DNA of 39,611 nt from an uncultured Planctomycetia bacterium (lineage in GTDB: Bacteria > Omnitrophota > Gorgyraeia > Duberdicusellales > 4484-171): contig CAZHVO010000003.1 in the NCBI GenBank assembly GCA_964536195.1, positions 1,797-41,407 of the forward strand, written 5' to 3'. Each line of letters opens with the position of its first letter. Positions within the stretch are counted from its first letter, which is position 1. Both the position numbers and the translations under genes were made by a program. The notes under the pieces were generated by a model. The model saw nothing but the letters and a program-made list of their open reading frames with translations. It was not told where the DNA came from and did no database searches. Shown piece by piece: positions 10,059 to 28,697 of the stretch.

Positions 10059-10472
10059 ATGAAGTTTCAGTTAAGCTGTAAAATTTATCCTTTTGAGGCT
10101 GTTCTAAATGCTTCCTATACTTTTATTGACCGTGTCTATATTTTTTTGGATAGTAATTTAAAGGAGGACAAGGTAATAGTTTCTTTTAAAGAAAAACAAA
10201 AACTTTCTCCCAAAAAATTGGAAGATTTGCGCGGAGAATTTATGAATGAGCTATTGCATTGCGTTTTGAGATACAAGATAAGTAAAAATAACAAAAAGAT
10301 TAGAGAATATATTGTCGGACGCGCTTTATATTCCGCTCTGCCTTTACCAATGGAAGAAGCTCTGCTGGGAGAGGATTCGGGGAAACTAGATTATCAGGAA
10401 GACCCTTTAGGTATTACTATACCTTGGGAAGAGAAGCATGGAAAGAAAAAAAATGCTAAATCTAAAGTTTAA
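10059..10472 (+). CDS. hxsD: His-Xaa-Ser system protein HxsD
   Basis: KIYPFEAVLNASYTFIDRVYIFL and EFMNELLHCVLRYKI..IREYIVGRAL; just upstream of HxsB; SD aggag. Confidence 0.8.
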   Translation: MKFQLSCKIYPFEAVLNASYTFIDRVYIFLDSNLKEDKVIVSFKEKQKLSPKKLEDLRGEFMNELLHCVLRYKISKNNKKIREYIVGRALYSALPLPMEEALLGEDSGKLDYQEDPLGITIPWEEKHGKKKNAKSKV

Positions 10473-10665
10473 TACTAAAATATATAAAATGAAGGCAATT
10501 CAAGAAGCCATTTTGGCCTATTCTGATAGGGCGAAATTTTCTCTATCTAATGATAAAAGGTATATACAGGTGCGGATAAATAAAGTAGACTCGGAAATTA
10601 AGGCTATTATTGGTGATGAGTTTGCCAATTATGTATTGGGGTTGACTAAAAAATGGATACAATAA
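10438..10665 (+). CDS. Second, short HxsD-like protein (alternative start 10453)
   Basis: KIYKMKAIQEAILAY...DEFANYVLGL parallels KIY...EFMNELL of the upstream HxsD; overlaps both neighbours. Confidence 0.7.
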   Translation: MERKKMLNLKFNTKIYKMKAIQEAILAYSDRAKFSLSNDKRYIQVRINKVDSEIKAIIGDEFANYVLGLTKKWIQ

Positions 10666-12125
10666 TTGAGAATGTAGATAGGCAAAAGGTTGGTTTTTGC
10701 AGGTTTAAAAAACTGAACGATAAGTATTTGCTTACCAATGATGTTGGCGATTACTGTTTTTTAACTCCTGTGTATTTTAAGGCATTGTTTTTGGGTAAGC
10801 TTGAGCAGATAGAGAAAGATAATCAGCATAAGTATCAGGAACTTGTTGATAAGGGTTTTGTGCGTAGTCTATTAGATTTCGATAGGTTGATTGAGAAATA
10901 TTCTACAAAGAATATGGCTTTGAAGGAAGGGCCGGTTCTGCATATAATTGTAGTAACACTAAGATGCAATCATGCGTGTGTTTATTGTCAATCTAACGCC
11001 GGCGGAGTTGATAATAAAACGTTGGATATGGATATATCCGTAGCAAGGAAGGTTGTTGATAGAATTTTTGAATCTCCCGGATCAAACATTACTATTGAAT
11101 TTCAGGGGGGAGAGCCTATGCTTAACTTTAAAACTGTGAAATTTATTGTTGAGTATGCACGAGAAAAAAATAAAGAGAAAAAGAAAAGTTTAAAGATAAC
11201 AATGGTTTCTAACTTAACTTGTGCTACCGAAAAGATAATAGCATTTTTAATAAAAAATGATGTTGATATTTGCACCTCTATTGACGGCCCGGAATATGTT
11301 CATAATAAAAACCGGATTATTTTCGATAAAAACAAGAATAGCTATAAAAGAACAGTAAAATGGCTGAAGAAAATCGAAGATAAGCTTGGTGCGAAAAAGT
11401 TTAAACATAGACCTAATGCTTTGTTGACGTTGACAAAACGTTCTTTTACTTATTCTAAGGAGATTGTTGACGGATATGTAAAGATTGGTTTGGACGGTAT
11501 CCATTTGAGACCAATGAATACATTTAGTTTGTCTAAAAAAGTGCCTCGCACTTTAAGCTATACCTGGGCTGATTTTATTGCTTTTTATAGAAAGACAGTT
11601 GATTATATTATTGAACTAAATCTTAAAAAGAGATTTTTCTATGAGAGGACGGCAGTGGTATTTTTGATTAAGATTCTTACTGATAACGACCCGAATTACT
11701 TGGATATTCGTTCTCCCTGCGGGGCCGGTATTGGACAGCTGGCCTACGATTATAATGGAAATGTATATACCTGTGATGAAGGTAGAATGTTGAGCAGGAT
11801 TGGAGATGAGTCATTTAAACTAGGCAATGTAATGCATAATACTTACTCGGAGATGATTAATCACCCCACAGTTAAGGCAATGTGTGTTGCTTCTTGTTTA
11901 GATAATCTTCCCGGATGCAGCCAGTGTGTATATAAGCCGTATTGCGGTGTTTGTCCCTTACTGAATTATGCAGAACAAGGCAGTATTTTTATCCAGCAGC
12001 CTAAAAACGAGAAGTGCTTGATGCAAAACGCAATTTTAGATTATCTTTTTGAAAAATTAGAAAATAAAAGTTGCAAGGATGTATTTAAAAAATGGGTGGA
12101 CCATTTTATGTCTGGAAATCAATAG
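10653..12125 (+). CDS. hxsB: His-Xaa-Ser system radical SAM/SPASM maturase HxsB
   Basis: YLLTNDVG, LHIIVVTLRCNHACVYC, EFQGGEP, DIRSPCGAGIGQLAYDYNGNVYTCDEGRM, CSQCVYKPYCGVCP. Confidence 0.9.
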   Translation: MDTIIENVDRQKVGFCRFKKLNDKYLLTNDVGDYCFLTPVYFKALFLGKLEQIEKDNQHKYQELVDKGFVRSLLDFDRLIEKYSTKNMALKEGPVLHIIVVTLRCNHACVYCQSNAGGVDNKTLDMDISVARKVVDRIFESPGSNITIEFQGGEPMLNFKTVKFIVEYAREKNKEKKKSLKITMVSNLTCATEKIIAFLIKNDVDICTSIDGPEYVHNKNRIIFDKNKNSYKRTVKWLKKIEDKLGAKKFKHRPNALLTLTKRSFTYSKEIVDGYVKIGLDGIHLRPMNTFSLSKKVPRTLSYTWADFIAFYRKTVDYIIELNLKKRFFYERTAVVFLIKILTDNDPNYLDIRSPCGAGIGQLAYDYNGNVYTCDEGRMLSRIGDESFKLGNVMHNTYSEMINHPTVKAMCVASCLDNLPGCSQCVYKPYCGVCPLLNYAEQGSIFIQQPKNEKCLMQNAILDYLFEKLENKSCKDVFKKWVDHFMSGNQ

Positions 12126-12139
12126 GTAAGGAGGAGATT

Positions 12140-12844
12140 ATGTGTTTGAAAAAATTGATCCTTTTGGTAGCGATCGTTTGTATTGGTATGTTTTATTCAA
12201 ATATTATTTTTGCCGAAAGTTTAGAAGATTTAACAACTAATTTTAATATTGATACGATTGAAAAAGATGTTTTTCAAAGATATTCTAAAGCAGAAGGGTT
12301 GTTAGGTGCATATTTAATATGTACAGCAGCAGTGAGAGGTGACCAGACAGTGTGTGATGACCTAAATTCGGATGAAGCCCGGTTTTGTAGTAAGCAATTT
12401 AGCTCGATGCATAATTTTTATAGAGAGTTAGTTACAACAGGAACAGTTACTTCAAAAGCTATAGAAAGTTGTATGCAAACTGAAAACGGCGTAACATCCC
12501 AAGATTGTCGGGATTTGGCAGAGGCATTCATTTCTAAGGATGCGTCTATATGTGAAGTATCAGAATGTAGTGCGATAATAAAAAGAGACGTTGGGTCTTG
12601 TAAGGAAGATAAAGGATGTCGGGATAGGGTTTATTATATAAAAGCAGTTGAAAAGAATAATGCCAAAAGTTGTGATAAGATAAAAGATGAATCTCTTAGA
12701 ATGCTTTGTATGGGAAGTATTACCCTAGATGAGAAGATATGTAAACAATGTAGTGGTTTTAAAAAATTTATTGAGCGGTATCATGAAGACCTAATAAAAA
12801 TGGAGGTGGGCGATGAAGAAGAAAATCAGGCTACCCAAGATTAG
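12140..12844 (+). CDS. Secreted Cys-rich repeat protein
   Basis: Start at ATG 12140 after SD aggagg; signal peptide ending IIFA|E; 13 Cys in the mature part with five (D/N)xxxC units. Confidence 0.7.
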   Translation: MCLKKLILLVAIVCIGMFYSNIIFAESLEDLTTNFNIDTIEKDVFQRYSKAEGLLGAYLICTAAVRGDQTVCDDLNSDEARFCSKQFSSMHNFYRELVTTGTVTSKAIESCMQTENGVTSQDCRDLAEAFISKDASICEVSECSAIIKRDVGSCKEDKGCRDRVYYIKAVEKNNAKSCDKIKDESLRMLCMGSITLDEKICKQCSGFKKFIERYHEDLIKMEVGDEEENQATQD

Positions 12845-13109
12845 GATAGAAATAAAGGATTTCCTTTTAAGTGAAGAGGGGAAAATTACTAAAAAGAATA
12901 TTGCTAAGTTGGGGATGTCTTTAGCAGTTATGGCGATAATGTTTAAACCCCAGGCTGCTAGTGCAGCTCATTCTAGCCATGGTAACCACGGTAATGCTTT
13001 TTTTTCTGGCGATAGAGGTGGGCATACTTCAGGAACACCACATGCTTCGCATGGTTCACATGGCTCGCATGGTTCACATGGCTCGCATGGTTCGCATGGA
13101 CAATGGTAA
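12813..13109 (+). CDS. hxsA: His-Xaa-Ser repeat RiPP precursor (HxsA-type)
   Basis: SD ggaggtgg; 51-aa leader, then AHSSHGNHGNAFFSGDRGGHTSGTPHAS(HGS)x5HGQW; lies among HxsD/HxsB/HxsC-like genes. Confidence 0.9.
   Translation: MKKKIRLPKIRIEIKDFLLSEEGKITKKNIAKLGMSLAVMAIMFKPQAASAAHSSHGNHGNAFFSGDRGGHTSGTPHASHGSHGSHGSHGSHGSHGQW
13041..13103 (+). repeat. 9-bp tandem repeat x7 encoding His-x-Ser triplets
   Basis: catgcttcg catggttca catggctcg catggttca catggctcg catggttcg catggacaa; the 18-mer catggttcacatggctcg occurs twice exactly. Confidence 0.95.
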
Positions 13110-15989: not shown

Positions 15990-18800
15990 ATGAATGAAAA
16001 TACATCAAAGACTAGATATCGTGATAAAATCGTTGGTCGAACCGATAGCTTTCCGAATGCAATTTGTTTGGTAAATAAATTCAAAAAGACAATTAAAAGA
16101 CCAGAATTGTTAAGGAAAGTTAAAACAATTTTTTCAACTTCAAGAAAGAATAGCATTGTATGCACGCTAGCTGATTATCGAGCCCTTGTAGATGTATATC
16201 AGCGGAGTCGAAATCGAAAAGCCGAAAAAAGCAGTTCTAAATCTAAAATTCTTCTTTTCAGGAATATTTTTAATTCTTCGGGTAAAGAGAAAAACCAAAG
16301 TTTTAGCTCAGCAACTCTTTATTTGGCTTCTGGCCTAAAGAAGGCAGGTTTTAGAGTCGTTTTTAGCAATTCCAAGATTTCTTTGGAGAACGACGATTTT
16401 ATTACGCAAAAAGAGGAGTTGGAGAAAATTTTGAGAGCGAATTCCGACATAAACATTATCGGTATTTCTCTCTGTGAAGACTTTTTCGAAAAGGCTAAAG
16501 AATTAATTAAATTTCTAAGAAAAAGAACGAAGGCTTTTATCGCAGTGGGTGGTGTAATGCCAACACTAACTCCTGAACATGTTTTTGTTCATTTACCGGA
16601 TGCGAATTTTTTGGTCAGGGGCGCTGGTGAAGAAGTTCTTCCCAAAATGGCTAAAATTTTAGGAGGAAAGAATATTGATTCTTCTTTCGACAAAGGAGAG
16701 GTAGAAAATCTTTTAAAACTTAAAGGCGTTCTTTTTCAGAATAAATTTATTTTTATTTCTGCAGCTTTAGATAAAGTTAATAATATTACAGATTACGACT
16801 GTTCTTTTCTTGATTTCAGTTTCCTGAAGGCGGAAAATATTACTAACGGTCTAATTCTTTTTACTTCCCGAGGATGTTTTAATAATTGTTTTTTTTGCAC
16901 TTCGCCGGGAAAGGGTGAATATGTAGCTAAAAGTTTTAAGAATTTAAAAACAATTATTAAGAACTATAAGCAGAGGCTCAACGAAATTTTTAAGAAAGAT
17001 ATCCCACCTTCTGCTTTACGGATTTCTTTCTATGATGATGATTTTCTCGCCGATACTCAAAGAGCTAAATCTTTTTTCTTGTATCTGAAAAAACAACCAT
17101 TCCGCATAAATTTTTTCCAAACCGGCATAAACTCTTTTTTTGAAAAAGTTGGAAAGAAGTACTCCGGCAAGTTAGACCGGGGACTTCTTAAGAGTTTGGC
17201 TCCGGAAATTTTTGACCCCTCAAAAGAAACAAATATTTATATAGGACTTGAAAATATTTCCGATAGAGAACTTACAAGATTAGGCAAGGGGTACAGCCAT
17301 AAAAAAGCCGAAAAAATAATAAATACATTAGCTCTGAAGAGAATTAAAATCACTTGTCACTTTATAGCTTCAAATCAATTAACTTCTTTAGACAATATTG
17401 TAGAAAATTTATTCAAGTTTTCTGTTTTCCAAGCTCTTTACGGACAATATTTTAAAGTTTTAACTCCAATTATTCCTTACCTTGTGTCTCTTTATCCATC
17501 GGCAAGTTATAAAATTTCTTTAATAAATAAACGAGAAAAATTTATTAATATTCGTCGTAATCTATTAGTGGAAAATTATCCAGAGTATGATTATTCTCTA
17601 GTAGAGAATGATATTCCTATGAGCAAGGCTGTACAAGCCTTGGTTCCTTTACTTTATGATTCATTTTTGGCTAATAAGAATTATTTTAAAATTTTAGATG
17701 AGATGTTATCTAATCTCCTGCTTTTACAAGAAAAAATTCCTTCGGCACAAAAAGAGATATCAAATGTGGTTAGGAAATATAATAATTATTACCTGATGAT
17801 TGATAAAAAGGTATCTCGTATGGTAACCCCCGGCCGGAATAACCTGCAATTAATGATTACTAAGCGATGCCACCTTCGCTGTAAATATTGTCCGATTGTT
17901 AAAAAAAATGAAGACATGAGCGAAGATGTGCTGTATCAAGCAATTAATTTTCTTTTTACCGCTTCCGGAGACACTCTTCGCTTGGATTTTACTGGTGGAG
18001 AGCCGTTGTTAAGATTTGATTTGGTAAAAAAAGGAGTTGAGTACGCTAAAAAATTAGCCCGAAAGAAAAACAAAAATATTTCTTTTTACCTGGTAACAAA
18101 TCTTATTGCGATGGAGGATGATATTGCTGATTTTTTGGCCAGAGAAAATTTTTTCCTGGAATTGTCAGTAGACGGGGAAGAAAAATTCCATAATCTTTAT
18201 AAAATCGGAAGAGACCATAAAATAAACGCTTATCAATCAACAATAACTAAATTGCAGAAAGTATTTTCAAGAAAAATAAATAATTATGCGGTGATGGTAG
18301 TAAATCCAGCCACTGTTAGATATCTGTGGCGTAATTTTTACCATATTATGAAATTAGGATTTAGAAGAATCGGTGTTAATTATGCCCTTTGCTCAACATG
18401 GGAAGCAGATGCCCGAAGGGAATTTTTCCGACAATTTGATTTAATTAAGGAAGCTTTACACCTCCATATTAAAAAAGGGATAGTCAGCTTAACTAATCTA
18501 GAGTCGAGAAACGAACCGGCTATTCTAAATAGTGAAATAATGGTTGACGTTGACGGGAGAGTGCGACTATTGACCGATTACCTTTTTGAAAAAGAAATTA
18601 AAAAGAAACCGCCCTTTTTAGGAGAAATAGGAAACTTTAAGAATATAAATGAAATTTTTTTGACGCAGTTTCGAACTTTATCCCGGTTGTTTCGGTATCA
18701 GGCAACTCCTAAAATAAAAAAGGTTATTCTTAATAATATCGAAATGGGAAATTTGACAAAAATCTATTTTGAAGAATGGAAAAGCAAATTAAAGCAATAA
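15990..18800 (+). CDS. Cobalamin-binding radical SAM domain fused to a group B radical SAM domain
   Basis: LYLASGLKKAG, VGGVMPT, VRGAGEE, TSRGCFNNCFFC, FYDDDF; second domain ITKRCHLRCKYC, FTGGEP, EPAILNSEIMVDVDG. Confidence 0.85.
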   Translation: MNENTSKTRYRDKIVGRTDSFPNAICLVNKFKKTIKRPELLRKVKTIFSTSRKNSIVCTLADYRALVDVYQRSRNRKAEKSSSKSKILLFRNIFNSSGKEKNQSFSSATLYLASGLKKAGFRVVFSNSKISLENDDFITQKEELEKILRANSDINIIGISLCEDFFEKAKELIKFLRKRTKAFIAVGGVMPTLTPEHVFVHLPDANFLVRGAGEEVLPKMAKILGGKNIDSSFDKGEVENLLKLKGVLFQNKFIFISAALDKVNNITDYDCSFLDFSFLKAENITNGLILFTSRGCFNNCFFCTSPGKGEYVAKSFKNLKTIIKNYKQRLNEIFKKDIPPSALRISFYDDDFLADTQRAKSFFLYLKKQPFRINFFQTGINSFFEKVGKKYSGKLDRGLLKSLAPEIFDPSKETNIYIGLENISDRELTRLGKGYSHKKAEKIINTLALKRIKITCHFIASNQLTSLDNIVENLFKFSVFQALYGQYFKVLTPIIPYLVSLYPSASYKISLINKREKFINIRRNLLVENYPEYDYSLVENDIPMSKAVQALVPLLYDSFLANKNYFKILDEMLSNLLLLQEKIPSAQKEISNVVRKYNNYYLMIDKKVSRMVTPGRNNLQLMITKRCHLRCKYCPIVKKNEDMSEDVLYQAINFLFTASGDTLRLDFTGGEPLLRFDLVKKGVEYAKKLARKKNKNISFYLVTNLIAMEDDIADFLARENFFLELSVDGEEKFHNLYKIGRDHKINAYQSTITKLQKVFSRKINNYAVMVVNPATVRYLWRNFYHIMKLGFRRIGVNYALCSTWEADARREFFRQFDLIKEALHLHIKKGIVSLTNLESRNEPAILNSEIMVDVDGRVRLLTDYLFEKEIKKKPPFLGEIGNFKNINEIFLTQFRTLSRLFRYQATPKIKKVILNNIEMGNLTKIYFEEWKSKLKQ

Positions 18801-20011
18801 TTAATTCTTTTATCGATGATTTCGATCAGCAAAAGCTGGTTTTGCTGGAGCATATACTTTTTTCTCTATTGTTGGAGAGAGAAGCGTATTTACTTCAAAG
18901 AAAAAAAAGCACATATACAAAGAAAATAGCAGGAATCCTATCTCGTTATGCTAATTACCGGTATCTAATTTACGAAACAATGTCAAAGAAGAAAAAAGTT
19001 GATAAAAACTTTCTTATGAGAAATATTTATATCTCCCCTCAGCGCCTTATCGTTCTTCTGACTCATAATTGTCAATTACGCTGCGAGTATTGTCGGGTAA
19101 GCAAATTCTCATCTTTCATGAATAAAGAAACTTTATTTAAAGCGATCGATTTACTGTTTACTTCCAATTCACGAGAGCTTCAACTTCAGTTTTTTGGCGG
19201 TGAGCCTCTTCTAAAATTTGATTTGATCAAAAAAGCAGTTATTTATGGAGAAAAAGCTGCTAAACGGCTGGAAAAAGATCTAGTTTTTATCCTTACGACC
19301 AACGGTATTGAGCTGACAAAAGAAAAGGTAGATTTTCTAAAAAAGCACCGGTTTATTATCGAGTATAGCATAGATGGTGAGGTTGAGGCTCAGCTTAAGA
19401 CCAGGATGGCCTCTAACAATAAAAATTATTATTCACATATGATAGATAATTTTGAGTATCTTAAACAGTCAGGCATACGCCACTATTCTATTAGCGTGGT
19501 CATGCCGCATACTGTTTCGCCAATGTTTAGAAACTTTAAGCATTTGGTAGATATTGGGTTTGAGAGTTTACAGATGAATTATTCTTTAGGGTTTTTCTGG
19601 CCCAAGAAGGAGGTAAAAACTCTTTTTCGACAAACAGAGCAAATTCTTAACTATGTTAAGAAACACAGGGATATTCAATTCATTAATTTAACTTCTGCGA
19701 GGAAAGAGCCGGTAGTCCTTAACGCTGAGCTGACGGTAGATTGTGATGGTGGGATATATATGGAATCGGGAATTTGCCTTGAGGAAGATTTTATTGAGAT
19801 GAAAAACAAATTTTTGGTAACCGATCTAGAGAAAGCGGTAAACGTCAATTTGTACGGTTCCACTCCTTTTCAAAATTTTTACCGCTTATCAGAAATTTAT
19901 GGCGCGGCAAACCCCAAATTTAGAGAAATTATTCTAAATAATATTTTCTTGGGAAAAAAATACAACTTATTTTTAAAAAATGAAAAAAGTAAAATTTTCC
20001 ATTCCTTATAA
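18776..20011 (+). CDS. Radical SAM protein (group B) with an N-terminal helical extension
   Basis: LTHNCQLRCEYC, FFGGEP, TTNG, SIDG, EPVVLNAELTVDCDG. Confidence 0.88.
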   Translation: MEKQIKAIINSFIDDFDQQKLVLLEHILFSLLLEREAYLLQRKKSTYTKKIAGILSRYANYRYLIYETMSKKKKVDKNFLMRNIYISPQRLIVLLTHNCQLRCEYCRVSKFSSFMNKETLFKAIDLLFTSNSRELQLQFFGGEPLLKFDLIKKAVIYGEKAAKRLEKDLVFILTTNGIELTKEKVDFLKKHRFIIEYSIDGEVEAQLKTRMASNNKNYYSHMIDNFEYLKQSGIRHYSISVVMPHTVSPMFRNFKHLVDIGFESLQMNYSLGFFWPKKEVKTLFRQTEQILNYVKKHRDIQFINLTSARKEPVVLNAELTVDCDGGIYMESGICLEEDFIEMKNKFLVTDLEKAVNVNLYGSTPFQNFYRLSEIYGAANPKFREIILNNIFLGKKYNLFLKNEKSKIFHSL

Positions 20012-20972
20012 TGGAGATATTGAGTTAATTAAATGGGCGATTAAAAATAAGCAGGTTGAGGAAGTTTATTTTGCTGGTCCGCAAGGGTATGATTTTTCTG
20101 ATCCATACGAGAACGAAAAAAAACATAGCCTTTACGATGTCAGTGCTTTAATGAGGCTTTGTAACAAAAATAAAGTAGATACGAATTTATTAATTAATAA
20201 GAATGTAATGTTTTTTGAGTCTTTGGCGAGGATAAAGAAAAGTATTAATATTTTGCAAAAAGCAGGGAGTTTAGATTATATTACTGTAGCTGATGTTTTT
20301 CTTGCTAAGTGGCTAAAAGAAAATTTTCCTTTAATTAAATTGCAATCGTCTATTTATATGGGGATAAACAATTTTTTGAAGGTAAAAGAAGGTATAAAAG
20401 CAGGCATATCCAAATTTTGTTTAGATCCTTCAATAAACCGTAATGGACAGGAGTTAAGAAAAATTGCCGGTTTAAAAAAGCATTATCCTTTTTTGCGGAT
20501 CAAACTGTTAGGATTGATTATGTGCTATCAGAATTGTTTTTATTCTTTAAGACATAGCGCTTTGCCGATTTTTAGTAGACAAATCAAGAGTAAGGGGGGG
20601 TACTTGGGAGAGCAGTTTGATTGTTATAAATGCCATTATTTGCCATCAGGAATAGTAGATGAGATTAAAAGGCCCTACGTTCGTCCAGAAGATGTTAGCT
20701 ATTACGAAAAAGAAAAGTTGACCGATTCAATAAAGTTGGCTTATCGTAATGAGCCCAGTGCTTCATTGAAGCTAAAAATGATAAGTTACTTTAATCGTAG
20801 TTATAATGGTAACTTATTTGATTTAATGGATTCTATTAATTATGATAATTTATTTTGTGATAATAAAAGGATACCTAAAGATTTCGCTAAAAAGGTTGTG
20901 GAGTGTAATAAAGATTGTTTTTCGTGTGGTTATTGTGAGTTTATCGCTAAAAGATACCTTAAAGCCAGGTGA
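19980..20972 (+). CDS. U32 'peptidase' family Fe-S protein
   Basis: FSIPYN..EEVYFA, ITVAD, LQSS, LDPSINR, CYQNCFY..H, VRPED..YY, IKLAYR; C-terminal CNKDCFSCGYC. Confidence 0.75.
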   Translation: MKKVKFSIPYNGDIELIKWAIKNKQVEEVYFAGPQGYDFSDPYENEKKHSLYDVSALMRLCNKNKVDTNLLINKNVMFFESLARIKKSINILQKAGSLDYITVADVFLAKWLKENFPLIKLQSSIYMGINNFLKVKEGIKAGISKFCLDPSINRNGQELRKIAGLKKHYPFLRIKLLGLIMCYQNCFYSLRHSALPIFSRQIKSKGGYLGEQFDCYKCHYLPSGIVDEIKRPYVRPEDVSYYEKEKLTDSIKLAYRNEPSASLKLKMISYFNRSYNGNLFDLMDSINYDNLFCDNKRIPKDFAKKVVECNKDCFSCGYCEFIAKRYLKAR

Positions 20973-23170
20973 AAATGTCTAAAATTGTTTTGATAAATCC
21001 TGTAAATCTTGACCCCCCGCCTAATTATTTTGGGCCGCCATATGGGTTAAGTCTTATAGCGGCTAATCTTTTAAAATGCAACAAGAAAGTTACCGCTTAT
21101 GACTTTGACTTTCAACCGATGCCGGTAATGCTGCAGGCAATCCCGGAAATACTAAAAAAAGATAAACCTGATTATATAGGTATTGCAACACAAAGTTGTG
21201 CTAGAGGTTCAGTATATCAGATCATTAGGGCAATAAAAAAAAATGATAACAAGGTAAAGATAATATTAGGTGGGCCATTTGCGTCATTGAAATTTGAGTT
21301 GCTTTTGCGCAATTTTGCTGTTGATTTTGTAATAATCGGCGATGGAGAGATAACTTTAAATCAGCTTATTGATTGTATTGACAATAAAGATAACTTGAGT
21401 GATGTGGATGGTATAGCATATATAGGAAGTGGTAAGCTTTGTGTGACTCAGGAAAGAGAAAAAATAAGCAATTTAGATCAATTACTTTACCCTGCTTTTC
21501 ATCTTTTTAAAGACTTTAATGAGAGAATGGCCTTTCCTAAAAATCTTGGCCCTTTGCCAAATTTTTTATTAGGTAAACGGTGTACAACCTTAAAAGATGC
21601 ATTGTTAATGTTGTCTTCCAGAGGGTGTATTTATAGCTGTAACTTTTGTCCAATGAGCAAGATAACTAAGCATAAAATAAGATTTCATAGCCCGGAGTAT
21701 TTTGTAAATATGGTTGAGTATTTTCATGAAAAGTATAGTATTAGTGATTTTGTTTTTGGCGATAATTTCTTTACATTAAGAAAAGAAAGAGTTCTGAAAA
21801 TTTGTGAGTTGATATTACAGAAAAAGCTAAAAATAAAATGGGGTTGTATGACTCGTTCTGATTATGTTGACGAGGAGATGTTGTCGATAATGGCGAAAGC
21901 TGGCTGTTTTGAAATATCTTATGGAGTTGAAAGTGGATCAGTTTTGATTCAGAAAAAAATAGGTAAAAATCTTGATCTAGCTAAAACCAAAGAATCATTT
22001 TTAATGACGGAAAAGTTTGGCATTAGAAGTGTGCTTATGCTTATGATTGGGAATAGTGGAGAAAATGTAAATACGATAAAGCAGACTATGAAATTTGTCC
22101 GCGGAATGAGGCCGGATAGTATTTTGGTTAAAAAAGTAAAGGTGTATCCCGGTACAAAAATTCATGATATTTTTGAACAAAAAGGTTTGATAGATGACAA
22201 TTATTATTTAGGCGATGACTACCATCCGCCTACCTTTACTTTGGCGCATAGCCAAAATAAACTTAATGATTTTTCAGATATGATTAAGTCGAGGAGGGTA
22301 TATATAGACTCTACTAACGTTTCAAACAACAATTCATTGTTTAGTGATTTAGATAGCGGTTTAAGAGATAAAGATCTTGATACCATTAAAAAAGAACTTG
22401 CATTAGCTTTAACTAGGGCAGAACTGGTGGTACTGACCGGAGGCGAGTTTTTTCTGCGTAAAGATTTTTTTGATATTCTGCGATTTGCTATCGACTTAAA
22501 TCTTCATCATCTTTATATAAAAAGCAACGCAAGAATATTTTTATACAATAAGTTTTTAGAAAAATTGATGAATATAGAATGTCTGGAAAAAATTTTAGTT
22601 CCTTTTTACGGCGAAGAGGCTTATCACGATCAAGTTTGCCGGGTTAAAGGAGCTTTTTCCCAAACTGTAAAAGGCATTAAGAATTTAAAATTAAGATTTC
22701 CTTACATCAAAGTCCAGGCACAAATACCAATTTTACTTAATAATTTTGAAAGAATTCAGGATTTAACAGTAATGCTTTCAAATATGGGGGTTGATGAGTT
22801 TCACTATCTATTTGGCCGTAGTTGCGATGGGATTACGAAAGTAAGTCCGAATAATTTACCGCTTATCAGCAAAGCTATGAAGAGTATTGCAACGGCAAGT
22901 AAGTGGTTGGTTAAAAAAAATAAAGAAATATCTTTTGAGGGTGTGCCTTTATGTATAGCCGGAAAGTACAAATACTATTGTTGCGATTTCACGCAGCCCT
23001 TTGACGAGGTAATAACATTTGATAATAAAGTCGTGGGTTGTATTGAATTGAGAAAAAAATATAAGAAAAAGTATTTTTTTTGTAGAAAATGCAAAGAGGG
23101 TGATTTGTGTGAAGGTGTTTGGAGAAATTATGCGAAAATAGCAAAATCTGATGAGCTTAAACCATACTGA
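20969..23170 (+). CDS. B12-dependent radical SAM (class B methyltransferase-like) fused to a degenerate HxsC-like domain
   Basis: IVLINP, PPYGL, ILGGPFAS, IGDGE, SSRGCIYSCNFC, YGVESGS; C-domain SNNNSLFS, LTGGE, VPLC, CRKCKEGDLCEG. Confidence 0.87.
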   Translation: MKMSKIVLINPVNLDPPPNYFGPPYGLSLIAANLLKCNKKVTAYDFDFQPMPVMLQAIPEILKKDKPDYIGIATQSCARGSVYQIIRAIKKNDNKVKIILGGPFASLKFELLLRNFAVDFVIIGDGEITLNQLIDCIDNKDNLSDVDGIAYIGSGKLCVTQEREKISNLDQLLYPAFHLFKDFNERMAFPKNLGPLPNFLLGKRCTTLKDALLMLSSRGCIYSCNFCPMSKITKHKIRFHSPEYFVNMVEYFHEKYSISDFVFGDNFFTLRKERVLKICELILQKKLKIKWGCMTRSDYVDEEMLSIMAKAGCFEISYGVESGSVLIQKKIGKNLDLAKTKESFLMTEKFGIRSVLMLMIGNSGENVNTIKQTMKFVRGMRPDSILVKKVKVYPGTKIHDIFEQKGLIDDNYYLGDDYHPPTFTLAHSQNKLNDFSDMIKSRRVYIDSTNVSNNNSLFSDLDSGLRDKDLDTIKKELALALTRAELVVLTGGEFFLRKDFFDILRFAIDLNLHHLYIKSNARIFLYNKFLEKLMNIECLEKILVPFYGEEAYHDQVCRVKGAFSQTVKGIKNLKLRFPYIKVQAQIPILLNNFERIQDLTVMLSNMGVDEFHYLFGRSCDGITKVSPNNLPLISKAMKSIATASKWLVKKNKEISFEGVPLCIAGKYKYYCCDFTQPFDEVITFDNKVVGCIELRKKYKKKYFFCRKCKEGDLCEGVWRNYAKIAKSDELKPY

Positions 23171-26100
23171 AAATAATAGTGTTGCAAATATGCTGATTTG
23201 TATTACAGCAAAATGCCAATTAGATTGTTCTTATTGCAGTCTTGACCGGGAGGTTCAGGATATTACTGAGTCGATGCTATACGATGCATTGGACTTGTTG
23301 TTTACAGCCAAGAAAGATATCCTGGAGATACAATTTTTTGGCGGTGAACCATTGTTGAGGTTTGATCTTATGGAAAAGGCAGTTAATTATGCAACGGAAA
23401 AAAATCAAAAAATAGGAAAAAATATCAGGTATGTTTTAACTACCAATGGTTTAATCTTGAATGATGAAAATTGCCAGTTTTTAAAACAGCATGATTTTAC
23501 ATTGTTACTAAGTATTGATGGCATGCCAGAAACACAAATTAAGAATAGGCCTTTGAGTTTTTCGGGTAAAACAAATTATTTTGAGTCAATTTCAAAAGCT
23601 TTAGCTTTTCTTAAAGTTTTCAAAATCGATTATTTTGTCAATATGGTTTTTATGCCTGATGATGTAAAAAAGATGACTGAAAACGTAGAATACCTTATCG
23701 ATTTGGGCGTGAAGGATATACAACTAGCTTATGCGGTTGGACAGTATTTTAGTGATAATAATATTTTTAGATCTGTGGATGAATTTACTAAAATAGCTCA
23801 GTTGGCTAAGGAGAGAAAAGTACGTTTTCGTAATTTAGACAATGATAATGAACCGATATTGTTTTCTCCACAAGTAGTCGTGAGTCCTTTGGGTAAAGTT
23901 TATGTTGGGTGTGCGTTGGTTTTAGAAAAGAAATTTAAAGAATTCAATGATATTTTTTATTACGATCAGTTAAATAATGGGTTAACCTTTGAAGATGTTT
24001 GCCGGACAAATTCTGAGCAGTTTGCCTTGCTTGAGAAAAATAGGGATAAAATAGATAAAGCTTTATTTAGCAATTTATCTTTGGGTGTCGCTTTGGATAT
24101 CTTTGCTAAACATTATCGCATAAGCAAAGATAAGGGCTTAAATATGTACGAGGCCCAGAGTAATTATCTATACCATGATAAACTTATGCTAATGCTTACC
24201 CATAAATGCCAGATGTGTTGTCGTTATTGCTATCTTGATTTTACTCATCCCGACATCAAAGAAGAGGTAATTTATAAGGCTATAGATGTTTTGTTTTTTT
24301 CACAGAAGAAGGATAGTGTCGAGATACAATTTTTTGGCGGTGAACCTTTGCTGAGATTTGACCTTATGAAAAAGACCATAAATTATGCAGAGAAAAAATG
24401 TGTAGAGGCCGGGAAAAAAGTAAAGTATCTCTTAGCTACTAATGGAATTGGGTTAGGTGCTAAGGAATTGGAATATTTGTCTAATTATCAGGTTGGTTTT
24501 ATTCTTAGCATTGACGGTAAAAGCCGTACTCAAAGATATAATCGACCGTTATTAAACAAGAAGAAAAATTATCCTTTTATTCGATTTACGCGGGTTATCA
24601 ATAACTTGGTAGGCCAAAAACGGGATTTCTTTATTAATCTTGTTGTTGGTCCCAAAAATGTAAATGCTTTAGTTGACAATGCTTTGTTTTTTTTAAAGTT
24701 GGGCGTAAAGAATATAAGACTATCTTATGAACTTGGAGTTTTTTGGGAAAAAAAATATATCATCCGATATTGTATCGCTTCATTTAAGATTATGTGGGAG
24801 TGGATAAAACATGGTGATAATAATTTAATAAATTTACATGTTGATGATGAGCCTTCTCTTATATCTCCGGTGCTTACAGTTGATTACGAGGGAAGTGTTT
24901 ATAGTGGGTGTACAATAACTTTAGAGAAGTTATTTCCGGCTTTTCGAAAAATTAATTATATTGACAATATATGTAATGTTAAAAGAATGGAAGATATGAG
25001 TCGAACCAGGAAAGAAGTAGTGAGTAAAATGTGGAGTTTATCTGAAAAACGTGAGTTGGTGTTTAATAATCTTATGGTCGGTAAACTTGCCGAGCAGCAT
25101 TTCCATAAATTTAACGTGGAAGAAAAGAAAGACGTCGACTCAGACTTGCCTAAATATAAGGTAAGCGGGCTAATGCTAATGTGTACTTATCAGTGCCAAT
25201 TAAAATGTGGATATTGCGAGATAGAACAATGTGATAAGTCAATGAAGCAGAAGGTAGTTGAGGATGCTATTGATTTGCTGTTGACCACTAAGGGCAAAGA
25301 GTGTTTGTTGAGATTTTGGGGCGGAGAGCCTTTGCTTGAATGGGAACTTATTAAAAAAGGGATTAAGGCCGGAATTAAGAAAGCCAAAATAAAAAACAAA
25401 AAGCTAAAATTTTCCATTACTACTAATGGATTACTGTTGGATGAAGAGAAACTTGATTTTTTAAAAAAGAATTCAGTGGAAATAATGTTCTCTATGGATG
25501 GAGATGAATTAGCAAATAAAACTTTTAGGCTAAAAGGGGTTAATGAAAAACTTTATACTGAGTTGGAGAATAACTTAAAGCTTTTAGCTAATTCAGGTAT
25601 CGCCCATTTTGTTAATTTAGTGGTTTTTCCGGATAACGTAGAACACTTGGCTAAAAATATCAGTTTTATCAAACGATTAGGAGTTCAGCGGATACAGATT
25701 GGTTATCAGAATGCTGTATTTTGGGGTGCAGATAAGGTTAAGGCGATGCAAGATCAAATAAGAAAGTTTTTTGAGGCAAATGGAGGAGAAGAGCTATTGA
25801 TGAATTTCGTTAATGATTGTGAACCGACAATGCTTAGTAATGAAATATTGGTGGATGTGGACGGAAAACTTTATTTGGACGGAGCTGTTTTCATGGAAAA
25901 AGATTTTCCTGCCCTGCGAAAGCAATATTTTTTAGGTGATCTTAAGGCTATTAAGCGTGTTGATGACCTGTATTTAACTAAAAAAGATGTATTCAATAAA
26001 TTCAAAAAAGCATGTAATGCTAGGCAGCGTAAGCTATTAGATAATAATATTGATCTTGGTCTGGAAATGGAATATTTTTACAATGATTTTTCTTCTCGTT

Positions 26101-27032
26101 CTTTTCAATCTAACGAGCATCCGGTTTTGATTCCCGTTCTAAAAAGTGATGTTGAAGCTCAACAGAAGACTTTGAAAAAGATAGGCATAAACTCTTCATT
26201 TTTATATCTAAATGGCCCCTGTAGAAACAATTGCATATTTTGTCTTAATAAAGAAGAGGAGCGCTATTCTGATCCTTTTAAAAGTGAACGCTTGATTGAG
26301 AAGAATAAGGATTTGAAGAATAATAAATTATGTATTGTCGGAAATGACCCTCTCCTGCATCCTGATATCATTACTATTGTAGAATTAGCCAGAGGATTCA
26401 ATTTTAAAGAGATAGAAATCATGACTTCAGGAGAAGTATTGGCTAATGAGGGTTTTACTAAAAAGTTGATTAATTCCGGTGTTAGTTCATTTTCTCTTCC
26501 TTTATATTCTGATATAGCCCAAATCCATGATTTTATAGTAGGAGTTAAAGGTAGCTATCCGAAGGTTTTGAAGGGCGTAGAAAATGTTTTATCTAATAGA
26601 GGGAGGGTGTTTGTTCATTCTAATTTGTTGAAGCAGAATATTGACGGTCTAAAAAAATTAGAAGGGTTTGTGAAAAATATTTTAGGTTTGCCGTTTGTTA
26701 TTTTGCCGGTTAGACCTAAAAGTTCTAATTTGTTATACAAAGATTTAGTGCCTTCTTATAGGGATATTGTAATGAAGTTAAAAGGGGTAAATTCTTTGAT
26801 GGCTTTTCCCCTATGCGTTGTTAAGCAGGTTCAGAAGAATATTTTTAAAGATGAAAGCGAGATAGCCGATTCGATGAAATTATATGTTTTAGACCAAAAG
26901 TTTGTTAAACCGCAAAAGTGCCGCCGGTGTGCGGATCGCCTTAAATGTGTGGGGATTTTTAAAGAGCATGGCCAGATGTATGGAGTTGGAGCTTTGAAGC
27001 CTTTTATTAGAAATGGCAAGAAAATCAGTTAA
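23151..27032 (+). CDS. Four-domain radical SAM protein (B-B-B-A)
   Basis: CQLDCSYC (aa 22), CQMCCRYC (aa 353), CQLKCGYC (aa 682), CRNNCIFC (aa 1024) in one open frame. Confidence 0.88.
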   Translation: MSLNHTENNSVANMLICITAKCQLDCSYCSLDREVQDITESMLYDALDLLFTAKKDILEIQFFGGEPLLRFDLMEKAVNYATEKNQKIGKNIRYVLTTNGLILNDENCQFLKQHDFTLLLSIDGMPETQIKNRPLSFSGKTNYFESISKALAFLKVFKIDYFVNMVFMPDDVKKMTENVEYLIDLGVKDIQLAYAVGQYFSDNNIFRSVDEFTKIAQLAKERKVRFRNLDNDNEPILFSPQVVVSPLGKVYVGCALVLEKKFKEFNDIFYYDQLNNGLTFEDVCRTNSEQFALLEKNRDKIDKALFSNLSLGVALDIFAKHYRISKDKGLNMYEAQSNYLYHDKLMLMLTHKCQMCCRYCYLDFTHPDIKEEVIYKAIDVLFFSQKKDSVEIQFFGGEPLLRFDLMKKTINYAEKKCVEAGKKVKYLLATNGIGLGAKELEYLSNYQVGFILSIDGKSRTQRYNRPLLNKKKNYPFIRFTRVINNLVGQKRDFFINLVVGPKNVNALVDNALFFLKLGVKNIRLSYELGVFWEKKYIIRYCIASFKIMWEWIKHGDNNLINLHVDDEPSLISPVLTVDYEGSVYSGCTITLEKLFPAFRKINYIDNICNVKRMEDMSRTRKEVVSKMWSLSEKRELVFNNLMVGKLAEQHFHKFNVEEKKDVDSDLPKYKVSGLMLMCTYQCQLKCGYCEIEQCDKSMKQKVVEDAIDLLLTTKGKECLLRFWGGEPLLEWELIKKGIKAGIKKAKIKNKKLKFSITTNGLLLDEEKLDFLKKNSVEIMFSMDGDELANKTFRLKGVNEKLYTELENNLKLLANSGIAHFVNLVVFPDNVEHLAKNISFIKRLGVQRIQIGYQNAVFWGADKVKAMQDQIRKFFEANGGEELLMNFVNDCEPTMLSNEILVDVDGKLYLDGAVFMEKDFPALRKQYFLGDLKAIKRVDDLYLTKKDVFNKFKKACNARQRKLLDNNIDLGLEMEYFYNDFSSRSFQSNEHPVLIPVLKSDVEAQQKTLKKIGINSSFLYLNGPCRNNCIFCLNKEEERYSDPFKSERLIEKNKDLKNNKLCIVGNDPLLHPDIITIVELARGFNFKEIEIMTSGEVLANEGFTKKLINSGVSSFSLPLYSDIAQIHDFIVGVKGSYPKVLKGVENVLSNRGRVFVHSNLLKQNIDGLKKLEGFVKNILGLPFVILPVRPKSSNLLYKDLVPSYRDIVMKLKGVNSLMAFPLCVVKQVQKNIFKDESEIADSMKLYVLDQKFVKPQKCRRCADRLKCVGIFKEHGQMYGVGALKPFIRNGKKIS

Positions 27033-28202: not shown

Positions 28203-28697
28203 GTGATGAGAGCAACGAAAGCAAAAAAGGAAAGCGGTAAATCAGGGAAAAAAGGCAAAAGTAGAAAAGGAGCCCTCTATGCTCCAAAATCCTCAACAGT
28301 AGTCGCTGGAAGATTTATTGATAGTGGAGATGGTACAATAACCGATTTGAAGACAAGGTTAATGTGGGCTAAAGAAAGTAATAGTATTGGTTGCTATTGC
28401 GGCAAGAAAATGACATGGAACGATGCTGTTAAATATGCAAAGTCTCTATCGTCTGCAGGATATTCTGATTGGCGCCTTCCGGAAATAGAAGAATTAATAA
28501 GCATTGTAGATTATTCAAAACTTGACCCTGCCATTCACGAGGTTTTCCTGAGTACACCTAATGGCTATTTTTGGACAAGTACTGTTTTTAAAAGTGATAC
28601 CAGAGGCGTCTGGGTAGTAGGCTTTGATACCGGAAGAGTCAATGGCGATGACAAGAGCGAATTTTTTTATCTTAGATGTGTTCGTAATATAAAATAG
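28203..28697 (+). CDS. DUF1566 (Lcl C-terminal-like) domain protein with a Lys-rich N-terminus
   Basis: RFIDSGDGTITDLKTRLMW, TWNDA, GYSDWRLPEIEEL, FWTST, LRCVR. Confidence 0.85.
   Translation: MMRATKAKKESGKSGKKGKSRKGALYAPKSSTVVAGRFIDSGDGTITDLKTRLMWAKESNSIGCYCGKKMTWNDAVKYAKSLSSAGYSDWRLPEIEELISIVDYSKLDPAIHEVFLSTPNGYFWTSTVFKSDTRGVWVVGFDTGRVNGDDKSEFFYLRCVRNIK

Follow-up and report, generated by a model that had tools for sequence, protein, structure and literature searches.

A Cys-less HxsC-like domain fused to a B12-binding radical SAM enzyme, probably retained as a pseudo-enzyme domain

We analysed a 39,611-nucleotide stretch of contig CAZHVO010000003.1 from an uncultured bacterium (hereafter the window) and followed up an earlier note on one of its genes, located at 20969..23170 on the + strand, the strand on which all features described here lie. 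The gene encodes a B12-binding radical S-adenosylmethionine (rSAM) enzyme fused to a C-terminal HxsC-like domain in which the three cluster Cys of the rSAM superfamily are all replaced by Ser. On balance, and with some reserve, we favour the view that this Cys-less domain is a pseudo-enzyme domain that has been kept under selection, and that it has arisen in this lineage only.

The gene is a single open reading frame (ORF) encoding 733 residues from a GTG start, or 731 from an alternative ATG at 20975. Its N-terminal part fits the layout of cobalamin-dependent (class B) rSAM enzymes, with a B12-binding domain (residues 20-133, 21026..21367; PF02310, E 1.5e-13, 51.1 bits vs a cut-off of 32.1) followed by a catalytic rSAM core of the CX3CX2C type (residues 216-377, 21614..22099; PF04055). 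The cluster motif of this core, CIYSCNFC (residues 220-227, nucleotides 21626-21649), is intact and lies in a region that is invariant in alignment A2. The C-terminal 298 residues (protein P0001, 22274..23167) make up an HxsC/HxsC4-like pseudo-rSAM domain, assigned through NF038332, TIGR03977, AlphaFold2 and Foldseek. Where C-x3-C-x2-C is expected, nucleotides 22322-22345 read TCA AAC AAC AAT TCA TTG TTT AGT and translate to S-N-N-N-S-L-F-S, the three Ser codons being TCA, TCA and AGT. The earlier note had aligned this stretch with CNNNCIFC of ORF 15037 and read it as three Cys-to-Ser changes, which both the codons and our alignment A1 bear out. It was also correct that two of the three changes require more than one base change, TCA being two steps from TGT or TGC and AGT one.

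The remaining motifs of the domain are in place, as the note had reported for LTGGE, SNAR, VPLC and CRKCKEGDLCEG. The G-G-E motif (22439..22447, within LTGGE), which is the SAM amino-group site in rSAM enzymes, is kept. At the ribose motif, for which the family consensus is T/S-N-G, the domain has S-N-A (22523..22531, within SNAR), retaining the Asn and replacing Gly by Ala; TNA or SNA is also found in 37/198 Cys-intact family domains. Four Cys constitute a presumed auxiliary-cluster site near the C-terminus, the first in P-L-C (22946..22954, within VPLC, the Cys at 22952-22954) and the other three in C-x2-C-x5-C-x-G (23081..23116; CRKCKEGDLCEG). All ten HxsC-like domains of the window share P225, C227, C270, C273, C279 and G281 (alignment A1), and 72/72 sequences of alignment A3 share C227, C270, C273, C279 and G281. 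The domain also keeps NNN in the old cluster loop and the Phe preceding the third cluster position. The exact 731-residue protein is recorded on three contigs, which argues against a one-off assembly error. Recoding of TCA and AGT was considered and rejected, given that the same codons elsewhere in the gene (residues 74, 320, 322 and 352) align with Ser of orthologues.

Structure prediction, which the earlier note had proposed as a check, returned an rSAM barrel for the C-terminal domain. AlphaFold2 run on the 72-sequence alignment A3, which draws on Cys-bearing homologues, gave a model with a predicted local distance difference test score (pLDDT) of 94.3 and a predicted template modelling score (pTM) of 0.92, in which six strand-helix units and a C-terminal subdomain match the partial (beta/alpha)6 TIM barrel of the rSAM superfamily. 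Foldseek comparison of this model with the PDB produced 154 matches at E<=1e-3, headed by rSAM enzymes only (SuiB, SkfB, DesII, BlsE, viperin-like enzymes, GDGT-MAS, anSME, PqqE and MoaA). The nearest solved structures are SuiB (5v1s), SkfB (6efn) and BlsE (7vob), with query TM-scores (TMq) of 0.71, 0.64 and 0.52, respectively, and a profile sequence search of the PDB likewise recovered BlsE (E 1.3e-26), SkfB (8.4e-22) and SuiB (1.1e-16). These three differ from the window domain in having CX3CX2C and in being active; in SuiB and SkfB the core is followed by auxiliary clusters. The PDB sequence matches cover the core only (profile positions to about 220), leaving the HxsC-type C-terminal Cys region without a solved relative by sequence. 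A model of the full-length protein from the 16-sequence alignment A5 reached a pLDDT of 85.9 and a pTM of 0.85, and such a pTM over 731 residues is compatible with the predicted C-terminal domain being packed in a fixed position on the enzyme.

Profile scores place the domain among the HxsC-like proteins without reaching the curated thresholds. It scores 68.6 bits against NF038332 HxsC4 (cut-off 500) and 47.2 bits against TIGR03977 HxsC (cut-off 267.9). Its Cys-intact paralogues in the window are likewise under the HxsC4 cut-off (at most 231.5 vs 500), and we therefore refer to the whole set as HxsC-like. Taken alone, the domain matches PF04055 at 26.5 bits (cut-off 29.5) over residues 30-158, the match beginning after the cluster loop. 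It has S-x3-S-x2-S instead of the CX3CX2C of rSAM enzymes, and it possesses the HxsC-type C-terminal Cys set (P-x-C ... C-x2-C-x5-C). The earlier note called the fused N-terminal part methyltransferase-like, a description that our results do not support: its best NCBIfam matches (ApyD, BchE, HpnJ and PhpK) all fall far under cut-off, and the Foldseek neighbours of the full-length model (TsrM, OxsB, AprD4, MgmA, CysS and TokK, E 5e-20 to 2e-16) include the non-methylases OxsB and AprD4. Among solved structures these six come closest to the model's N-terminal two-thirds, which they resemble in having a B12-binding domain followed by an rSAM core; unlike the window protein, none of these top matches is annotated with a second, C-terminal rSAM-type domain.

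Loss of the cluster Cys is rare in HxsC-like domains. In alignment A1 the window's ten domains comprise nine with C-x3-C-x2-C and this one alone with S-S-S. A profile built from these ten and run over 156 collected proteins gave 243 domain matches, 212 of which fill all three triad columns, and 207 of the 212 are C-C-C. The others are two S-S-S entries (both the window's own protein), one S-S-F (P0144), one R-C-C (P0007) and one misaligned "CCP". P0144 is a 611-residue metagenomic protein, 29% identical to the window domain, whose HxsC-like domain has intact GGE, TNG and C-terminal Cys and is followed by an arginase-like domain (PF00491, E 3.9e-5). It thus resembles the window protein in having lost the triad while keeping GGE and the C-terminal Cys, and in being fused to another enzyme-type domain; it differs in that its partner is arginase-like and C-terminal, whereas that of the window domain is a B12-rSAM enzyme and N-terminal. 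In a tree of 186 domains the nearest neighbours of P0144 are all C-C-C, and after midpoint rooting no clade of fewer than 178 tips contains both it and the window domain; 171 of those tips are C-C-C. The distance between the two and the C-C-C neighbourhood of P0144 imply an independent loss. Judged from these sequences, Cys-less HxsC-like domains have arisen at least twice, a hint that the route is repeatable.

A different kind of Cys-less domain was seen in P0033 (1011 residues), whose middle domain (residues 290-509) is an rSAM-like core without Cys triad, GGE or C-terminal Cys, flanked by a CX3CX2C rSAM domain (residues 6-210) and an intact HxsC-like domain (residues 789-1004).

The same survey bears on the idea that the window domain is still a working rSAM enzyme in which a different set of ligands holds the cluster, namely the three Ser or further Cys such as the lineage-specific C-C pair at P0001 residues 236-237. 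The retention of GGE, the ribose-motif Asn, the NNN of the loop and the Phe that precedes the third position would fit such an enzyme, and the domain does contain extra Cys, which are not conserved in orthologues. However, the 212 scored domains offer no other ligand set in the family, and we know of no natural rSAM enzyme that holds a SAM-cleaving cluster by three Ser. Moreover, C227 precedes the C-C pair by 9-10 residues, and in the model the helices concerned (H226-235 and H237-240) belong to the C-terminal subdomain; the pair would thus be close to the presumed auxiliary site and outside the N-terminal cluster loop. We regard residual catalysis as highly improbable.

Orthologues of the whole fusion were collected by three routes. 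A search with the C-terminal domain region found P0003 (748 residues) and P0004 (733 residues). Genome contigs, when scanned, yielded 46 matching stretches, and three of these encode a relative, namely the 738-residue genes L001 and L003, both from metagenome-assembled genomes (MAGs) of Candidatus Omnitrophota, and the truncated L002. A search of representative sequences returned 2742 matches at E<=1e-3, and from the best 150 of these 2742 we added P0009, P0012, P0051 and P0061 together with the shorter P0007 and P0010; P0008 differs from the L001 protein at a single residue. The earlier note had suggested checking whether orthologues conserve S-x3-S-x2-S. They do not: the triad is C-C-C in all eight of the other full-length fusions and also in two of the three shorter pieces that cover it (L002 and P0010), the third, P0007, being R-C-C. 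At the DNA level the orthologues have TGC or TGT at all three sites. On this comparison of sequences the Ser triad belongs to the window's lineage alone and is not a family trait.

P0007 (295 residues) is the closest relative of the P0004 C-terminal domain and has Arg for the first cluster Cys; it may be a fragment or carry a sequencing error. Among the Cys-intact orthologues P0003, P0012, P0051, P0061, L001 and L003, several have non-canonical GGE regions (GCGE, AGSE, PCAE and SGGD), and in the same set several have a non-aromatic residue (P, C, G or S) before the third Cys. This variation suggests that the SAM site of the C-terminal domain is under weak constraint across the whole fused orthogroup.

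A reading built on this variation is that the C-terminal domain of the whole orthogroup had already shifted from SAM cleavage to a structural, docking or redox role, with most members keeping the triad only for its cluster and the window protein representing the endpoint without one. An aromatic residue (F/Y/H) precedes the third Cys in 6/11 members vs 172/198 outside domains (Fisher p 0.013) and GGE is intact in 7/11 vs 171/198 (Fisher p 0.062), although these tests ignore shared ancestry and use a small sample. The GGE variants and the R-C-C of P0007 point the same way, P0007 with the reservation just given, as does the C-terminal domain evolving about 1.9 times faster than the N-terminal part over the whole tree. 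On the other hand, C-C-C in every other full-length orthologue indicates selection for the cluster, and the window domain itself keeps both the Phe and GGE. We think a shift of the entire orthogroup distinctly unlikely.

Retention under selection has instead to be weighed chiefly against recent inactivation with no retained function, in which the domain, redundant beside nine paralogues, would be a passenger in early decay with a frame left open by chance or by coupling to the downstream gene. We fixed a maximum-likelihood tree for nine full-length orthologues and compared its terminal branches between the C-terminal domain and the N-terminal part. The window's branch measured 0.409 substitutions per site for the N-terminal part and 0.863 for the C-terminal domain, a C/N ratio of 2.11 as against 1.68-3.33 for the other eight orthologues and 1.87 for the whole tree. 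A seven-sequence version gave 2.12 for the window vs 1.42-3.02, and the pairwise C/N identity ratio was 0.64-0.68 for pairs including the window protein and 0.59-0.77 for other pairs. The domain has therefore not accelerated relative to its N-terminal partner, contrary to what recent inactivation would lead one to expect.

Residue-level conservation tells the same story. The other six orthologues are identical at 53 columns of the C-terminal domain, and the window protein keeps 42 of these. Three of its 11 losses are the triad Cys, so that 42 of the 50 non-Cys sites are kept; five of the eight non-Cys losses are conservative (I/V, F/Y, L/I, F/Y and E/D). Cys-intact orthologues on long branches do similarly, with 42/52 (P0009) and 42/48 (P0012). 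In favour of recent inactivation, the window domain departs from otherwise invariant sites by Y to K, L to A and G to K.

The reading frame and the Ser codons also speak for constraint. None of the 298 in-frame codons of the domain is a stop, whereas the two off-frame readings contain 26 and 37 stops in 297 codons each; 152 of the 2682 possible single-base changes in the domain would create a stop. The only stop-free path from a Cys codon TGY (Y, pyrimidine) to TCA passes through TCY and then takes a synonymous change, and this has happened at two separate codons; the need for a later synonymous step at both implies that time has elapsed since the Cys were lost. Under a crude neutral model with simple equal rates, the product of the two probabilities, for both codons being at TCA and for no stop having appeared, does not exceed about 2e-5 for any divergence that was tried, which counts against recent loss. 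For comparison, the ratio of nonsynonymous to synonymous rates (dN/dS) between L001 and L003 gives a baseline of 0.09 for the N-terminal domain and 0.16 for the C-terminal domain.

Since there is no rate acceleration, invariant sites are kept, the frame is open and later synonymous steps have occurred, the sequence evidence favours continued purifying selection on the Cys-less domain over random decay. To this extent the earlier note's proposal that the changes look selected stands; its narrower part, selection for the Cys-to-Ser replacements themselves, is only weakly testable. Of the 7 single-step replacements of Cys that avoid a stop, 2 give Ser, which puts the post hoc p for three Ser by chance at about 0.023; adding the independent S-S-F case makes 5 Ser in 6 positions, with a p of about 0.009 that is equally post hoc and only suggestive. 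Such a bias would be in keeping with a domain that must still fold and in which the most isosteric replacement was selected.

Several observations weigh against retention under selection. The terminal branch is long, at about 0.9 substitutions per site, and the rate test averages over all of it, so that a recent loss could go undetected. Synonymous sites are saturated relative to L001 and L003 (proportion of synonymous differences, pS, 0.73-0.81) and so give no lineage-specific dN/dS. The next gene starts at 23151, inside the ORF that ends at 23170, and translational coupling could partly keep the frame open; this overlap favours recent inactivation, although coupling would explain an open frame and not conservation of residues. 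With C-C-C in 8/8 other full-length orthologues and S-S-S known from one protein alone, persistence of the Ser triad over evolutionary time is not directly shown, and a search for close relatives of the C-terminal domain that might show it found none at E<=1e-20 among 838 candidates of 163-522 residues. That word-index fragment search may have missed relatives, given that the 295-residue P0007 had matched at E 2.9e-63 in the representative search. The predicted fold is driven by Cys-bearing homologues and does not in itself show that the Ser form folds without a cluster. Finally, binding of HxsD or HxsA4 and a cluster on the C-terminal Cys, which enter the mechanism proposed below, are putative for the window protein and taken by analogy. 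Setting these points beside the rate, conservation and codon evidence, we judge recent inactivation unlikely and continue to favour a pseudo-enzyme domain kept under selection.

Going by how the superfamily works, the domain without its three Cys would be unable to hold the SAM-cleaving [4Fe-4S] cluster, and with no rSAM cluster it would produce no 5'-deoxyadenosyl radical. It may have been retained since the fused protein still needs its non-catalytic functions. Likely jobs would be packing against and stabilising the fused B12-rSAM enzyme and, by analogy with E. coli HxsC, which binds HxsD, docking the HxsA4 precursor and/or an HxsD-type adaptor; judging from the conserved residues, the C-terminal four-Cys site probably carries an auxiliary Fe-S cluster. 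The peptide-binding, scaffold or electron-transfer roles put forward by the earlier note are likewise candidates. Catalytic loss may be tolerable because nine other HxsC-like domains with intact triads are encoded in the same cluster.

A bolder and more tentative possibility is that the HxsC-like module of the whole fusion family serves mainly for built-in docking and electron relay and presents the HxS precursor or the HxsD adaptor to the B12-rSAM enzyme. The window protein would then be a natural "cluster-free" form whose role needs no SAM cleavage, and the rSAM barrel would have been reused as a substrate-recognition scaffold.

The closest characterised relative is HxsC of the four-gene HXS system. 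According to one study, this system is an anti-phage defence, 99.7% of it found in Pseudomonadota, in which the first cluster of HxsC is essential: a double mutation there stops HxsA processing in E. coli, while C342A/C345A in the second cluster domain only reduces it (PMC13128918). The same study reports that E. coli HxsC pulls down HxsD, and its Discussion treats the chemistry of the four-gene system as unresolved (PMC13128918). HxsC and HxsC4 are like the window domain in being its best family matches, in the order of an rSAM core and then P-x-C ... C-x2-C-x5-C-x-G, and in having HxsA4, HxsB and HxsD as genomic company. In contrast, the window domain has no Cys triad, scores far under the family cut-offs and is fused behind a B12-rSAM enzyme. 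Its cluster, with 20 rSAM-type domains and probably from Omnitrophota, also differs from the proteobacterial four-gene system.

Among curated families, TIGR04347 "pseudo-SAM/SPASM" (NCBIfam) carries a name that likewise marks it as homologous to rSAM enzymes without being a true one, and its members presumably lack the Cys triad. The window domain is not a member (27.7 bits, cut-off 525), and TIGR04347 proteins stand alone and have a SPASM C-terminus. The family name shows that the pseudo-rSAM kind is already known to curators. A literature search from which subscription journals were largely missing found no paper on pseudo-rSAM proteins or motif-less rSAM homologues and no mention of HxsC4, HxsA4 or HxsA3. 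With pseudo-rSAM proteins already known, what is new here is that the Cys-less domain is HxsC-like, shares a chain with a B12-rSAM enzyme and belongs to an expanded HxS cluster.

The fusion gene belongs to an expanded "type 4" His-Xaa-Ser cluster of about 26 kb, a single block at 10059-36181 with related loci in Omnitrophota MAGs. The Pfam-recognised rSAM domains of the block include 19 intact CX3CX2C motifs, to which the one Cys-less domain is added to give 20 rSAM-type domains. The block opens with HxsD (10059..10472; TIGR03976, 66.1 bits vs cut-off 50), a candidate docking partner of the fusion protein, followed by an HxsD-like protein (10438..10665; NF038315, 73.3 bits vs cut-off 41) and the rSAM/SPASM maturase HxsB (10653..12125; TIGR03978, 502.3 bits vs cut-off 370). 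Homologues of HxsD with 99%, 96%, 79% and 76% identity occur on other contigs, and sister genomes therefore exist. The His-Xaa-Ser repeat precursor HxsA4, the presumed substrate, is at 12813..13109 (NF038313, 71.1 bits vs cut-off 55). This 98-residue protein has a hydrophobic stretch, then HSSHGNHGN ... HGSHGSHGSHGSHGSHGQW, and its C-terminal end consists of HGS repeats. HxsA4, HxsB and HxsD all lie upstream of the fusion gene on the same strand, and a long series of rSAM genes comes after them. The L003 locus is a similar cluster, with HxsB, HxsA4 and several HxsC-like genes, and it too combines HxsA, HxsB and HxsD.

Other genes of the block were noted in passing. Between HxsB and HxsA4, at 12092-12844, is a 250-residue Cys-rich protein with an N-terminal hydrophobic segment and no family match; L003 has an unassigned 325-residue ORF at the equivalent position. 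A second B12-binding rSAM protein (15990-18800, 936 residues) carries a PapB-like rSAM domain in addition, with both CX3CX2C motifs intact. Immediately before the fusion gene, whose start overlaps its stop, is a 330-residue ORF (19980-20972) with a C-terminal CNKDCFSCGYC motif and a weak Peptidase_U32 match (E 0.003, under cut-off). The gene that follows the fusion (23151-27032) encodes 1293 residues with four rSAM domains, three PapB/HxsB-like and then one C-terminal HxsC-like, the last with G-N-D-P in place of the family G-G-E-P; its equivalents in L001 and L003 are differently cut and joined (983 residues, or 318 + 678). An Lcl C-terminal domain protein (28203-28697; PF07603, E 3.4e-32) also occurs among the rSAM genes.

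Our claim is limited to a loss in a single lineage, and the function of the domain is something we infer. Within that scope, the case matters for annotation, as rSAM enzymes are usually annotated by fold alone and a cluster-less domain that has the fold, GGE and the auxiliary Cys would be called active. Should docking or electron transfer be what the domain is kept for, it would be a natural separation-of-function variant of HxsC, and such a variant could help to assign roles to the many rSAM domains of expanded His-Xaa-Ser systems.

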